A DNA stretch of 25,182 bases from a virus (taxonomy: Duplodnaviria > Caudoviricetes). Position numbers and translations under genes: made by a program. Every line of letters begins with the position of its first letter. Position 1 is the stretch's first letter. Positions 4,149 through 24,592 of the stretch are shown piece by piece. The notes beneath the pieces are model-generated. The model had not been told where the DNA came from and did no database searches. It saw nothing but the letters and a program-made list of their open reading frames with translations. The stretch covers positions 1-25,182 of the IMG/VR virus record IMGVR_UViG_3300031954_001062, one strand, 5' to 3'.

Positions 4149-4493
4149 ATGCGAGTGATCAGGGACTGGCATGGCAGGATTCTCCCCATCCACGGACACA
4201 CGCGAAAGCGCGTGATGTCTCCCACTTACCAAACTTGGCGCGGCATGATTCAACGCACGACGAATCCGAAGGCCGCGAACTTTCCGCGTTTCGGCGGCAA
4301 GGGCATCAAGGTTTGCGCTCGTTGGCGAAAATCTTTTCTTCACTTCCTCGAGGACATGGGCGATCGTCCACGCGGGATGACACTCGATCGCCGCGATACG
4401 CGTAAGAACTACTGCAAATCAAATTGCCGTTGGGCTACCCATCATCAGCAGATGCTCAATCGCAAGAATGTCGGGCGGCCGCGTAAGAGTTAG
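4149..4493 (+). CDS. HNH-family (homing) endonuclease, antisense to the late operon
   Basis: HGH..SPTYQTWRGMIQR..FGGKGIKVCARW..F..DMGDRPRGMTLDRRD..NY..SNCRWAT..QQ..N matches the common phage YGGRGIxVCxRW/TLDRIDN/NCRWAT HNH family. Confidence 0.85.
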   Translation: MRVIRDWHGRILPIHGHTRKRVMSPTYQTWRGMIQRTTNPKAANFPRFGGKGIKVCARWRKSFLHFLEDMGDRPRGMTLDRRDTRKNYCKSNCRWATHHQQMLNRKNVGRPRKS

Positions 4494-13179: not shown

Positions 13180-13536
13180 TCAGTTGGTCTTCGCAGTCAC
13201 TACCGGATCGGACGTAGCGTCATACGGTGACGGAAATGCGCCGCCACCTCCACCACCGCCTGGACCTGGTGCGCCGCACGGTCCACCGCCGCTCGAGCAC
13301 GGCTGGCCGGCCTGGCCGACGATGTAGTCGCCGGCCTTGGCGATCAGATAGCCGAGGATCCCTTCGCAGATCGGACCGCACGCTTTCGGTGACGCCGGCG
13401 CGATCGAGAATGCCGATCCGCCGCCGCCGCCGCCAGGCTCACTCGGAACGCCGTGCAGGCTGACGAGGATCCATACGATCGGAACCATCGACAGCATGAA
13501 CAGCAACGACATACCAACGATTGTCTTTCGGTTCAT
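13180..13536 (-). CDS. Secreted or membrane-anchored Gly/Pro/Cys-rich protein (118 aa)
   Basis: SD GAAAGGAG; MNRK plus a hydrophobic stretch; poly-Gly linkers around CGPICEGILGYLIAKAGDYIVG. Confidence 0.75.
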   Translation of the reverse strand: MNRKTIVGMSLLFMLSMVPIVWILVSLHGVPSEPGGGGGGSAFSIAPASPKACGPICEGILGYLIAKAGDYIVGQAGQPCSSGGGPCGAPGPGGGGGGGAFPSPYDATSDPVVTAKTN

Positions 13537-13573
13537 TGCGACTTCTCCTTTCGAACAGTTGACTGGGGAGCTT

Positions 13574-14542: not shown

Positions 14543-14874
14543 TTCGATCGCTCCTTCACTGCCAGCTCGAGCTTTTGAATCGCCTGGCGCATGAGCTCGA
14601 GCGCATCGAGCAGCTTGTCGCTACTCGCCGGCGCGCGTGGAATCTGCGCACGCGGCACGCCGTTGCTTTTCTCGGCCTGGCGCTTCTTGCAATTGTCGAA
14701 GTGCGCCTGAAAGCGATCGTTGCCGAGATCCTCCATCGGCATCGGTTTGTCGTTGTGCGTCTTCCACCACACGATCGGCGCGCCACAATGTTTGCATTCC
14801 GCCTCGGTCTCGCGGCGATAGCCGGCGGCCTCGAGTAGCTTCGCGAATTGTGGTAGTGCGGGATTGATGCTCAT
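14539..14874 (-). CDS. Zn-finger protein (CxxCGAxIxW...HFxxC, 111 aa)
   Basis: CKHCGAPIVWWKT..KPMP..AHFDNC, a common phage C2HC pattern; SD AAGGAG. Confidence 0.75.
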   Translation of the reverse strand: MSINPALPQFAKLLEAAGYRRETEAECKHCGAPIVWWKTHNDKPMPMEDLGNDRFQAHFDNCKKRQAEKSNGVPRAQIPRAPASSDKLLDALELMRQAIQKLELAVKERSK

Positions 14875-15047
14875 TTCGGTTTCTCCTTTTCGTCGGACAG
14901 ATGGAATAGATCGTTACACCTTTTTCGCGGGGAAATGGTGCGCACGCGCTGTCGTGGCCGCGGCGCCAGGCGGCAGTACTTGACGTGGCGTTTCAGCTCG
15001 TGGAGGGGCAAATCTCGTCGTCGGCACCAAGGGCAGAAGACGTCCAT
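14871..15047 (-). CDS. Small C2HC Zn-finger protein (58 aa)
   Basis: MDVFCPWC...HVKYC; ATG 1 nt after the upstream stop. Confidence 0.55.
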   Translation of the reverse strand: MDVFCPWCRRRDLPLHELKRHVKYCRLAPRPRQRVRTISPRKRCNDLFHLSDEKEKPK

Positions 15048-15048
15048 G

Positions 15049-15228
15049 TCAGCGTTCCGAAGCCGGCAGTTTGGGGCAGGTAAAGCGGATGTGCGCAAGG
15101 ATCTCTTTGGGAGGATCAGTAGGACGGGGTTTCTTGCCACACCAGGGGCACTGGGGCTCGGGTAATCGCCATCCGGAATCATTGGGGTAGTGCTGCCGAA
15201 ACCAGCCTTCTACGAGCTTGCTGTGCAT
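15049..15228 (-). CDS. Small C2HC Zn-finger protein (59 aa)
   Basis: SD AGGAGG then ATG at 15228; CPWC...HIRFTC. Confidence 0.65.
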   Translation of the reverse strand: MHSKLVEGWFRQHYPNDSGWRLPEPQCPWCGKKPRPTDPPKEILAHIRFTCPKLPASER

Positions 15229-15261
15229 GGATCCTCCTGATCGGACCAGGCCGCAACTTCT

Positions 15262-15306
15262 CTCGGAAAAGCCGCCGCTCATCGAGCGAGAGCGGCTTTT
15301 CCCGAG
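15262..15306. terminator. Strong inverted repeat, probably a terminator
   Basis: GGAAAAGCCGC...GCGGCTTTTCC with an inner hairpin, downstream of the primase-helicase. Confidence 0.55.
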
Positions 15307-19695: not shown

Positions 19696-20771
19696 GGCTT
19701 CGCTTTCACCAGCTTCAGCACTTCAGCGTACTGCGATTCGCGGATGGCGCCGACGGTCGAGACCTTGAAGGCGGACTTCAATCGCGACTGCACCTGGTCG
19801 ATGGTCCAGCCGGCGCCCATGGCGATGTTGTAGATCTCCGTCTGTTGCTTGGTCGAGATCAGCTTGCCGATGTTCGGCGCCGGCGGGATCTTGGCCTTGG
19901 GCACTCCCGTGGCCGGTTCCTTCGGCGGCTTTTTCTTTTCGCGCGGCGGTTTGTCCTTGCTGCCGTCCTGCTCTTCCGCCTCGGTGGTCGGCTCGATCGG
20001 CGCCGGCCCGAGCGAGAAGGCCTCGGCCGCGGTCGAGGTGCCCTCGCGGATGGCGTTGTAGATTCCGCGCAGCGTCACCAGTTCGTCTGCGCCGATCTTG
20101 CTGACAGTCTTCACCCCAAGCACCTGAAGGATCGCTTCTTCGGGAACGTCCAGCTTGGTGAACGCGGCGAGCGCTTGCTTGCGCCGCTCCGCGATGTCCT
20201 TCTCGGCCGGCTTGGCATTCTCGAGCGCTTTCTCGTATAGCGGCAGCCAGAACATTTTCGGAATACCCTTCAGCACCGCGTTGCGGAAAGCAATTCCCGC
20301 CGCCGCGGCGCCGGTGGTGCCGATCATGTCGTCGTCATAGCGCGATCCGTCTTTGCGCGTGATGCGCCGTTTGATCTCAAAAGAGATCGCTACGTTGGTT
20401 TCCAGATCGTGGAACACGCCCTGGCTGACCACCTGCTTTTCTTCGGCGCCGAGTACGCGCGCGCCGATGCGGCAGTTGCGCCAGTTCTGTCCGATGATCT
20501 CCGCAAAGCGCACGCTCGGACCTTCAATGAGCTTTCCGCCGCGCGGCAGTTTGTAGAACATGGTTTCGGAAATTTCCTGCGAATAGGTGACCATCTGCGC
20601 AGCGCCTTGCTGGAACTGCACCATCGATCGCGGGAATTGTTTGGCGGTGGAGATCTGCAGATCGATCTCCGCCTTACTGATCGCCAGCAGATCCGTAGGT
20701 GCTACCACTTCGAGCATCGAGCTGCCGGCGCCGCCATCGATGACGGTGGCCACGGCTTTCTTTTCGGGCAT
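19692..20771 (-). CDS. Probable ssDNA-annealing/recombination protein (359 aa)
   Basis: SD GAAAGGAG then ATG at 20771; AKQFPR...YKLPRGGKLIEGPSVRFAE core, flexible linker, small helical C-domain; sits in the recombinase position upstream of the nuclease. Confidence 0.55.
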   Translation of the reverse strand: MPEKKAVATVIDGGAGSSMLEVVAPTDLLAISKAEIDLQISTAKQFPRSMVQFQQGAAQMVTYSQEISETMFYKLPRGGKLIEGPSVRFAEIIGQNWRNCRIGARVLGAEEKQVVSQGVFHDLETNVAISFEIKRRITRKDGSRYDDDMIGTTGAAAAGIAFRNAVLKGIPKMFWLPLYEKALENAKPAEKDIAERRKQALAAFTKLDVPEEAILQVLGVKTVSKIGADELVTLRGIYNAIREGTSTAAEAFSLGPAPIEPTTEAEEQDGSKDKPPREKKKPPKEPATGVPKAKIPPAPNIGKLISTKQQTEIYNIAMGAGWTIDQVQSRLKSAFKVSTVGAIRESQYAEVLKLVKAKP

Positions 20772-20782
20772 GAATTCTCCTT

Positions 20783-20893
20783 TCAAAAATCCATCGCCAG
20801 GAATAAGGGGAGCAGCAGCGCGGCGATATACGGCAGCAGCACCCAGACAACGTCACTGATTTGAGCGAAACATAGCGGCTTCTTTTTTCTCAA
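20783..20893 (-). CDS. Small membrane peptide (36 aa)
   Basis: GGGAG then TTG; MRKKKPLCFAQISDVVWVLLPYIAALLLPLFLAMDF; fills the gap up to the next RBS; below the ORF-track cutoff. Confidence 0.5.
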   Translation of the reverse strand: MRKKKPLCFAQISDVVWVLLPYIAALLLPLFLAMDF

Positions 20894-21041
20894 AGTACTC
20901 CCGCAGGATCTCGATCACCGTCGGCCCGAAGCCGCGGTCTCGAGCTGAGGCTTCCGCGCGCAGCAGCCGGTACATTCCGCGGGGAATGTACAAGGCTACC
21001 TGCCAGCGGTTGCGCACCTTATCCTTCTTAGCAATTCTCAA
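20853..21041 (-). CDS. Ribbon-helix-helix (Arc/CopG-like) regulator (62 aa)
   Basis: SD AGGAGG then TTG; beta strand QVALYIP, helix MYRLLRAEASAR, G turn, helix TVIEILREYF; first gene of the leftward operon. Confidence 0.7.
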   Translation of the reverse strand: MRIAKKDKVRNRWQVALYIPRGMYRLLRAEASARDRGFGPTVIEILREYFEKKEAAMFRSNQ

Positions 21042-21054
21042 GGCATCCTCCTGG

Positions 21055-21179
21055 CAGCCATCATATCAGAGGAATCCCAGAGCTTCCCAGAGTTATCTTC
21101 GCCTTACTTTCGGTATTGTATTCGTCTTAGATTTATCTGAGAATAGGAGGGTAGTCAGTCCGACAGGAAAGGAGCAGTC
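21055..21179. promoter_or_regulatory. Divergent promoter/operator region
   Basis: Leftward extended -10 TGATATGAT (21060-21068); rightward TTGTAT-N17-GAGAAT (21116-21144); direct repeat TCCCAGAG x2 (21075-21092); palindrome TCTTAGAT-TT-ATCTGAGA (21125-21142). Confidence 0.6.
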
Positions 21180-21326
21180 ATGACCCGTGAGCAGCAACTG
21201 GAGCTGGAGCGGGATCTCACAGAGATCGAATGCGAGCGCTGCGGCTATTGGCCGTGCGTTTGCGGCGATCCGGAATTCGAGACCGCACTCAGCCAGGATC
21301 TTTCGAAAGCCGAGGAGGTTGACTGA
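21180..21326 (+). CDS. Small Cys-motif protein (48 aa, CxxC-x4-CxC)
   Basis: SD GAAAGGAG then ATG; MTREQQLELERDLTEIECERCGYWPCVCGDPEF...; below the ORF-track cutoff. Confidence 0.7.
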   Translation: MTREQQLELERDLTEIECERCGYWPCVCGDPEFETALSQDLSKAEEVD

Positions 21327-22479: not shown

Positions 22480-22546
22480 CGTTGCCGTGCCGCCGCTTCC
22501 CTGGAAGCCGCGGCGAAGTAACGACAGTCCGAAAGGAGAAGTTGGG

Positions 22547-22729
22547 ATGAATATAGATCAGGTGAGGGAAATCCAGAAGCAAGCGCTCGCGAGTGCGGAA
22601 CTGAAGATCGGCAACGATCGTCTGCCATCGCTCACGATCGCGGTTCTCTGCGAGCTCGCCCTGCAACTGCGGGAGATCGATCACAGTCTGAACGCGATCT
22701 CTTCCGCGGTGGATGAGGTGGGCGCATGA
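22547..22729 (+). CDS. Hypothetical helical protein (60 aa)
   Basis: SD GAAAGGAG then ATG at 22547. Confidence 0.7.
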   Translation: MNIDQVREIQKQALASAELKIGNDRLPSLTIAVLCELALQLREIDHSLNAISSAVDEVGA

Positions 22730-23721: not shown

Positions 23722-23902
23722 ATGACTACGCAAAACGACCAAGGTCCACGTGTTCATCCTCGATCCACGCGCGATCGTCGGCGTGGCGCTGATGGTGAAA
23801 GACGCGGAGGGAAAGGAAGTGGTCGCGATGGCTTCGCCGATTCAACCGCTTCGTCCGATGCCGGGCGATCGGCTGACCATCGTGTTCCAGGCACCGAAGT
23901 AG
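23722..23902 (+). pseudogene. Frameshifted small gene (~59 aa if corrected)
   Basis: Strong SD AAGGAGG and ATG at 23722, but the protein-like frame (TTKVHVFILDPRAIVGV...QAPK*) is +1 after the CAAAA run. Confidence 0.5.
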
Positions 23903-23916
23903 AAGTCTACTTAAAT

Positions 23917-23963
23917 AGAAAAAGCCGCGGATACCTCGAGCGAGGTCCGCGGCTTTTCTTTTT
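23917..23963. terminator. Intrinsic terminator, probably bidirectional
   Basis: AAAAAGCCGCGGA...TCCGCGGCTTTTCTTTTT between convergent genes. Confidence 0.85.
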
Positions 23964-23984: not shown

Positions 23985-24275
23985 TTATTTGTGCTTGGTC
24001 GGCGACGGCGCTGGCGTGGTCGGCTCTAGCGTCGTCGGCTCGTGTGCCGCGGCAGCGGCGGCGGCCGCCGGCGGCGGTGGCGCTGCGGCGCTGAGCGTGC
24101 CCGGCGTCGCGCCGGCTACGATCGTGGAATCCGTTTGCACGTAATCCTCGCTAGCCCAGTATTCCTTGGGCACCGGCTGCGGCGAATCCGGCACCGCGAG
24201 CTCTAGCAGCACGCTGCCCTTCACGATGTCTTTCACCGTGCCGGTCAGCTTCACCACATCTCCGATTGCGAACAT
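23985..24275 (-). CDS. Small SH3/KOW-like domain with a Pro/Ala/Thr tail (96 aa)
   Basis: SD GAGGAGG then ATG at 24275; FAIGDVVKLTGTV. Confidence 0.7.
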   Translation of the reverse strand: MFAIGDVVKLTGTVKDIVKGSVLLELAVPDSPQPVPKEYWASEDYVQTDSTIVAGATPGTLSAAAPPPPAAAAAAAAHEPTTLEPTTPAPSPTKHK

Positions 24276-24288
24276 AGGTTCCTCCTCG

Positions 24289-24327
24289 AAAAAAATCGGG
24301 AGCAGAAGGTCCGACACCCCTGCTCCC
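24289..24327 (-). terminator. Intrinsic terminator
   Basis: GGGAGCAGGGGT-loop-ACCTTCTGCTCCC followed by GATTTTTTT on the minus strand. Confidence 0.7.
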
Positions 24328-24365
24328 TGTCAGCTCACGCCATGTGTCTGAAAGGAGAAAGACAC
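24289..24365 (-). ncRNA. Candidate ~77-nt sRNA with an anti-SD loop
   Basis: Extended -10 TGGTACGCT (24372-24380), then hairpin GTGTCT-[TTCTCCTTTC]-AGACAC, then the terminator. Confidence 0.45.
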
Positions 24366-24439
24366 GACGAAAGCGTACCACGAAACCCTGGCGGCTCCGA
24401 TCGCGCGGTATGATAGAATCTAAGACGAAAGGAGCAGCC

Positions 24440-24592
24440 ATGACCAAGGTCAACATCAAGGGACTGGCGCCGCCGGATCACCCGATCTACAAGGAAGGGT
24501 GGTCCATCTCGGTCGGCCCTGGCGCGGTGACGGTGAAGCCGCCGAAGGCGCCGAAGCCAGCTCCTCCGAAGAAGAACTCTGGACGGCGCTAA
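24440..24592 (+). CDS. Small Pro/Lys-rich protein (50 aa)
   Basis: Own -10 (TATGAT or TGATAGAAT, 24409-24419), SD GAAAGGAG then ATG; APPDHPIYKEG motif. Confidence 0.7.
   Translation: MTKVNIKGLAPPDHPIYKEGWSISVGPGAVTVKPPKAPKPAPPKKNSGRR

Follow-up and report, generated by a model that had tools for sequence, protein, structure and literature searches.

A conserved two-hairpin RNA element in a phage clade and a proposed two-loop repression of early genes

The locus and its neighbour genes

The window analysed here is the whole 25,182-nt stretch of phage DNA. A 43.7-kb record, G001, represents the same phage: the two are identical over 9,797 nt, and the window spans the ends of G001. The genome carries terminase, primase and exonuclease genes; an HNH endonuclease gene lies at 4149–4493 (plus strand), on the strand opposite the late genes. 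Because homologs of the terminase and of the 96-aa protein described below are labelled Acidobacteria by their sources, the phage host is likely acidobacterial. A 62-aa gene at the early divergence point (20853–21041, minus strand) looks ribbon-helix-helix-like by eye and has no PHROG or Pfam match. On the late strand, after the last large virion-type gene and at the far end of the late module, we find a predicted RNA element with the following layout:

24372–24380, minus: predicted extended −10, TGGTACGCT (TG-n-TACGCT), from sequence
24365, minus: predicted +1 at the start of hairpin 1, with a 6-nt spacing from the −10
24344–24365, minus: hairpin 1 with the anti-Shine-Dalgarno (anti-SD) loop UUCUCCUUUC (loop 24359–24350), from fold and sequence
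24335–24343, minus: AUG-GCG-UGA mini-ORF, probably incidental; its AUG is missing in L020 and G002
24298–24327, minus: hairpin 2, terminator-like, with UCGGAC at its apex (24314–24309), the predicted specificity loop
24289–24295, minus: U7 tract, beginning 2 nt past the hairpin 2 stem, from sequence
23985–24287, minus: RBS (24287–24281) and gene of a 96-aa protein (ORF 24275–23985)
24411–24592, plus: divergent extended −10 (24411–24419), RBS (24427–24434) and gene of a 50-aa protein (24440–24592)

The extended −10, hairpin 1, the U7 tract and the two-codon ORF all lie on the minus strand where the original prediction had placed them, as does the RBS that follows the terminator. The 77-nt RNA folds with −30 kcal/mol (z −2.5), and 5 of 200 shuffles fold equally well. 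In seven of seven element sequences the minus strand gives the better fold; a sponge RNA read from the plus strand was rejected on this ground. The predicted promoter and that of the divergent 50-aa gene face away from each other. Its −10 match is weak by itself: a consensus promoter scan of the window did not list it, and the pattern TGnTAnnnT occurs eight times in the window, so support for the promoter comes from conservation.

With a G+C stem followed by a U-tract, hairpin 2 of the window resembles an intrinsic terminator, and termination at the U7 tract is likely. The tail varies within the family and is lacking in G018; termination is probably leaky across the family. Terminator-like sites show no excess in the window (4 vs 4.8 expected). 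Between the early operon and the 96-aa gene, another hairpin (23919–23963), preceded by an A-run and followed by a T-run, is likely a bidirectional terminator.

The 96-aa gene follows the RNA in six of seven cases, with 15–22 nt between hairpin 2 and its ATG. Its product is predicted to form a small SH3/KOW/Tudor-like barrel (residues 1–50) with a Pro/Ala tail (model pLDDT 76). The best fold matches are of Tudor and KOW type and weak (Z 5.0 or less, rmsd 2.4 over 43 residues), and Foldseek gave nothing at E 0.001. One of six members of the downstream protein family matched Pfam KOW2_Spt5 at E 0.098; PHROG and Pfam gave no match for the neighbour genes of the element, the ESM Atlas no usable match for either neighbour, and the PDB sequence search 0 hits. 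That the 96-aa protein might act as a helper of the RNA is speculation. The 50-aa protein is basic and Pro-rich, not hydrophobic. Only the window, G002 and L020 (three of six) have its gene next to the RNA; it was not found in G011, G018 and G019.

Conservation of the element in relatives

Conservation in relatives, which the original prediction had proposed as a check, is present: the element has homologs in four related phages (G002, G011, G018 and G019) and on a 1.4-kb host-like contig (L020). It is real and conserved. The G002 copy was found by a DNA pattern and the L020 copy by a search with the 50-aa family, whereas the diverged copies of G011, G018 and G019 were found by a hairpin descriptor together with the downstream gene. 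A model built on three sequences (R1) gave weak matches to G018 (E 0.6), G025 (E 0.09) and, as a third, G034, and missed G011 and G019. Of 283 terminase relatives, 80 were among the matches listed; the model was run on 49 records (11 near-complete), and the full analysis covered 13. Loose DNA patterns were discarded as yielding chance matches: one returned 48 loci with one self match, another at least 119 loci with one self match and one unrelated flagged match, and single-mismatch matches appeared in 4 of 26 records. Rfam, C4 model included, gave no match at the locus (E up to 5 for the window, up to 10 for four homolog loci); INPHARED phages had no match for the RNA or the 96-aa protein, and scans of GTDB genomes found no such locus.

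TGnTAnnCT and its 6-nt distance from hairpin 1 are kept in G002 and L020, as are the loop, the linker word and hairpin 2. In G011, G018 and G025 there are −10-like hexamers at the same spacing, picked by eye; the pick in G019 is the least certain. The predicted RNA measures 75–83 nt in the seven sequences measured. Within it, UCGGAC at the hairpin 2 apex is the only invariant word (seven of seven aligned sequences), while the surrounding stem changes. The stem of hairpin 1 is replaced in sequence in G011, G018 and G019, and hairpin 2 has A-U/G-C swaps in the per-sequence folds; stem covariation in an alignment of the three closest sequences was not above shuffles (330/500). The anti-SD loop is predicted to be unpaired at 0.96–0.99 in the window, G002, L020 and G018, at about 0.7 in G011 and G019, and at only 0.07 in G025. 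After hairpin 2 come offset U-tracts in G002 and L020, pyrimidine-rich tails in G011 and G019, and no such tail in G018. The YUNR word is typical of antisense recognition loops; it is found at the hairpin 2 apex in five of seven sequences, not in the window, where the AC of UCGGAC is predicted to be paired at the top of the stem, which counts against the two-loop model presented below.

The five carriers (G001, G002, G011, G018 and G019) form one terminase clade (support 97/96). Two further phages have related elements: in G025 it stands ahead of a different gene, and sister phage G023 has a variant with a CCGGAC loop. In both (G025 ~29460–29570, G023 ~32180–32280) a promoter and two-hairpin element directly follow a lysozyme-like gene and precede a different small gene. 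On L020 (1–85, minus strand) the RNA and the 50-aa gene lie near the contig end, and the SH3-like gene stops after 24 codons; this copy is possibly a captured phage module.

Sites complementary to the two loops

Loop 1 has abundant potential partners. The original prediction built on its exact complementarity to GAAAGGAGAA, and this word is indeed the RBS of the genes at 13536, 20771 and 22547; the near-matching RBSs (8–9 nt) at 14874, 18752, 21180, 23722 and 24440 were confirmed as well. The word GAAAGGAG occurs seven times in the window against 0.76 expected, and none of 100 shuffles reached seven. G001 holds the same seven copies, one being the loop itself; G002 also has seven, G018 two counting the loop, and in G011 the loop is the sole copy. 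An unpaired C/U-rich loop complementary to the SD, a trait of LhrC-type RNAs, is predicted in the window (0.99 unpaired), and six of seven sequences show values of 0.68–0.99.

This abundance says little about specificity. AAAGGAGAA is a family-wide strong RBS, found in 13/191 predicted start regions of the five carriers and in 15/257 of seven comparison genomes. Since such starts are equally common without the RNA, we rejected anti-SD complementarity as evidence of specificity, which leaves the loop–RBS match, the key argument of the original prediction, weak. Specificity appears to come instead from the loop of the "terminator" hairpin, which had been overlooked.

The complement of loop 2, GTCCGA, was first spotted in start regions of G002 and then tested. 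It is present in 12/191 start regions of carriers vs 1/257 of comparison genomes, ranking first among hexamers seen at least five times; with a second start definition the counts are 16/156 vs 0/167. G023 was counted as a non-carrier in these tests and in the flank test described below; after its variant element was found, the main contrast was recomputed without it, giving 16/156 (five carriers) vs 0/147 (six non-carriers; P 1.6e-5), or 16/178 with G025 added to the carriers (P 5e-5). As the carriers belong to a single clade, this comes close to one evolutionary contrast. The reverse orientation occurs in 4/156 carrier regions, all four being the element itself. Tags, as we call GTCCGA in start regions, mark mostly early and middle genes (14/83), less often late ones (2/73). 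By blastp, the 16 tagged genes represent 14 families, the one homologous set being the first early gene of G001, G011 and G019. The position varies: some tags precede the SD, some stand between it and the start, and others are within the first codons. Their placement is non-random.

Bases around the tags follow the RNA of the same phage. Agreement between these flanks and those of the phage's own loop is 15/30 positions, compared with 48/244 around other GTCCGA sites, and only 2/120 RNA–genome permutations do as well; the 22547 site, not included in this test, agrees at neither flank and brings the count to 15/32. Loop 1, too, finds longer matches in tagged regions (8.6 vs 6.1 nt, P 4e-4; own vs other, 2/120): the altered loop 1 of G019 matches its own tagged RBS over 9 nt, and that of G002 matches over 13–15 nt. 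An unbiased ranking of hairpin-loop hexamers puts loop 2 at 1/152 in G001, 2/137 in G002, 3/132 in G011 and 3/91 in G019; in G018 it falls outside the top three of 103.

Other counts are less favourable. With starts defined loosely, an excess remains in G001 and G002 (7 vs 2.0 each), with none in G011 (2 vs 2.2), G018 (2 vs 1.3) or G019 (1 vs 1.4). G025 keeps UCGGAC, yet 0/22 of its start regions are tagged; G023 has no tags matching its variant loop, and GTCCGG shows no excess. Carrier genomes contain 17–36 copies of GTCCGA in total, mostly outside start regions. Host-like contigs, a stand-in host control, have 0/38 tagged start regions with only 0.3 expected, a comparison too small to be informative. 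Greater accessibility of tags was rejected as a distinguishing property (0.42 vs 0.39 at other GTCCGA sites, P 0.18). At several tags the UCC is predicted to pair with the GGA of the SD, which leaves the sign of the regulation uncertain. One further GTCCGA lies outside the counting window at 15262 (plus strand) in G018, where a long hairpin, 46 nt ahead of an early gene, displays it in its loop in a kissing-loop-like arrangement.

Each genome has only two to five predicted targets, a low number that speaks against the two-loop model. Those in the window, the last of them a weaker candidate, are:

21158–21174, plus: GTCCGA (8-nt match to loop 2) and GAAAGGAG, predicted target, gene at 21180, which opens the rightward early operon
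22527–22540, plus: GTCCGA overlapping GAAAGGAGAA, predicted target, gene at 22547
14881–14898, minus: GTCCGA and AAAGGAGAA, predicted target, gene at 14874
15232–15247, minus: GTCCGA and AGGAGG, predicted target, gene at 15228, absent from the list of the original prediction
13543–13556, minus: GTTCGA (wobble) overlapping GAAAGGAGAA, possible weaker target, gene at 13536

At all four GTCCGA targets the tag lies upstream of the SD, and the order of the loops is antiparallel to that of the sites. We ranked summed pairing energies over 46 hand-picked starts, disregarding three wrong codons and including the 16S tail motif for comparison only. The five best values belong to the genes at 21180, 22547, 14874, 15228 and 23722. 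The gene at 21180 comes first, and homologous genes in G011 and G019 also bear the tag; the window primase and the gene at 20771 do not, a further point against the model. At 23722–23902 (plus strand), a plausible protein that ends at the stop at 23902 is read in a different frame from the ATG at 23722 and its strong RBS. The frame of this ATG crosses the terminator into the opposite gene, and G001 has the same letters; the region is a candidate pseudogene or frameshifted gene.

A two-loop model and its alternatives

We now propose that the element encodes a trans-acting RNA of ~77 nt that would repress several early and middle genes of its own phage through two loops, a reading drawn from sequence to which we give a probability of about 0.6. 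Loop 2 (UCGGAC) would pair with the GUCCGA tag near the start codon and select the targets; loop 1, which alone fits most strong RBSs of the phage family, would pair with the SD and block the ribosome. Most likely, loop 2 nucleates on the tag, after which loop 1 covers the SD. Made from its own predicted promoter, the RNA would accumulate during infection and damp the early genes, acting as a timing switch, and read-through beyond hairpin 2 would express the small SH3-like gene. Of the original proposal of a trans-acting RNA aimed at early and middle genes, the core gains support from conservation and from the placement of GTCCGA, while the shared-RBS argument is weak. Timing is more likely than the immunity role also proposed there, since searches for tyrosine and serine integrases found none in five of five carriers. 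The attenuator in the form of a leader peptide on the mini-ORF was rejected: its AUG is lost in both closest homologs.

If true, this RNA-only timing switch would silence a group of early genes in its own phage and show how a generic anti-SD loop gains specificity from a second loop. The two-loop model specifies exact six-base compensatory mutations, which makes it testable in a laboratory strain without the uncultured host.

Several known RNAs share parts of this design. C4 RNA uses two separate pairing sites, and the CI RNA of P4 is a comparable phage system; both are processed from a precursor by RNase P. The element has two simple hairpins, no Rfam match and carriers in which no integrase was found, in all of which it differs from C4. 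A check for a C4-type operon showed neighbours without PHROG or Pfam match and predicted targets in other operons. The C4 antisense RNA of P1/P7 (Rfam RF01695; the motif is also listed in PMC2864571) is, as described in PMC8198154, required for full repression of ant and encoded in the c4-icd-ant operon; ours is likewise a phage-encoded small RNA predicted to repress phage genes by pairing, with predicted targets spread over several operons instead of one antirepressor operon.

Bacterial sRNAs are also among the close known systems. LhrC1-5 of Listeria are two-hairpin RNAs whose C/U-rich loop binds the SD and whose terminator loop joins in binding (PMC4132741); regulatory terminator loops are also treated in PMC11979758. 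The anti-SD loop here is of the same C/U-rich kind as in LhrC1-5 and the UCCC-motif sRNAs RsaE, RNAIII, SprD and FsrA (PMC4132741). LhrC, as presented there, has three copies of one UCCC motif that act on a single G-rich target, whereas the two loops here differ, loop 2 is not anti-SD, and the RNA is phage-encoded with predicted targets among the phage's own genes. The two predicted contacts are like those of S. aureus RNAIII with coa mRNA, where SD masking is combined with a separate loop–loop contact (PMC2837412); RNAIII is large and chromosomal, while our element has its second site within 40 nt of the start. Phage sRNAs controlling development that are described in a 2025 review (PMC12197685) include the antisense sar, OOP and aQ, each acting on one phage gene, and the trans-acting PreS, VpdS and DicF, which act on host mRNAs or via host Hfq; none of these is a tag-addressed repressor of many own early genes. 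A literature search of open-access papers found no description of the element among the matches listed.

The alternative that survives best, although we regard it as unlikely, is a cis-acting leader of the SH3-like gene, in which the partner of the C/U loop is the 5′ arm of hairpin 2 or the SD of the gene itself, possibly switched when early mRNAs bind. The downstream gene is constant in six of seven copies, and the U-tract is not conserved. Pairing of nascent loop 1 with the arm is predicted in four of seven sequences (window, G018, G019 and L020), and its pairing with the SD of the gene is strong in G018 (0.98) and partial in the window, becoming almost complete if a longer fragment of the window is folded. 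However, loop 1–SD pairing is 0.08 or less in five of seven, a C/U tract will pair with any G-rich arm, and the mini-ORF lacks conservation; the GTCCGA tags elsewhere would also be left unexplained by a cis role alone. Some cis role on the 96-aa gene is possible.

Quite unlikely, too, is a real RNA whose conserved loop is directed at something else (a protein, a host mRNA or a co-infecting phage), the tags being partly incidental, for example UCC/GGA hairpins tuning the SD. Such hairpins are predicted at several tags, G025 and G023 keep the CGGAC loop without tags in their own genomes, and one copy lies in a host-like contig, L020. Yet tags are missing from non-carriers, GTCCGG is without excess, and the flanks track each phage's own loop.

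A pair resembling type I toxin–antitoxin systems, with an RNA that exists only to silence the divergent 50-aa gene, seems improbable. The back-to-back layout in the window, G002 and L020 fits it, and the gene's start region has both target sites in G002 (a 15-nt loop 1 match and a tag), while L020 has a long match. The window, however, has only an 8-nt loop 1 match there, the gene was not found in three carriers, its product is no hydrophobic peptide, and tags stand at 13 other gene families.

More improbable still, GTCCGA could be the DNA target of a phage protein, in the manner of an operator or stoperator, the hairpin merely holding an inverted copy. One-orientation sites near gene starts are known in mycobacteriophages, both stoperators and the start-associated sequences (SAS) of Cluster K; the latter repeats stand where non-structural genes start and include bases outside the 16S pairing, and their binding partner, RNA or protein, is left open in the source (PMC3203893). 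Against a DNA site stand a common core of just 6 bp, the many copies elsewhere in carrier genomes, flanks that follow the RNA loop, and the position of the element's copy at a hairpin apex. SAS is a fixed 13-bp RBS-like repeat, whereas the tag is a 6-nt word at variable distance with a candidate complementary RNA present; the two-loop model, if true, would offer a concrete candidate for the binder of start-associated repeats at non-structural phage genes (PMC3203893). Finally, an ordinary terminator with chance matches and no regulatory RNA, a reading that the generic anti-SD matches favour, is hardly credible given the invariant loop, the kept spacing and length, and the strand-specific tags.

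An extension of the two-loop model that we think rather unlikely is a self-contained regulon: the two-key RNA would read six-base tags at many unrelated early genes, an SH3/KOW RNA-binding helper would be switched by the same RNA when its loops are occupied by early mRNAs, and copies on the host chromosome or in sister phages without targets of their own would act against tag-bearing phages.

The 50-aa family (PPDHPIY; L007–L056) is widespread: its genes overlap the ends of large phage genes and occur on many host-like contigs, where they have a GAAAGGAG RBS and a common upstream palindrome. In several copies, a C/U-rich stretch runs along the opposite strand and could pair with the RBS of the same gene.
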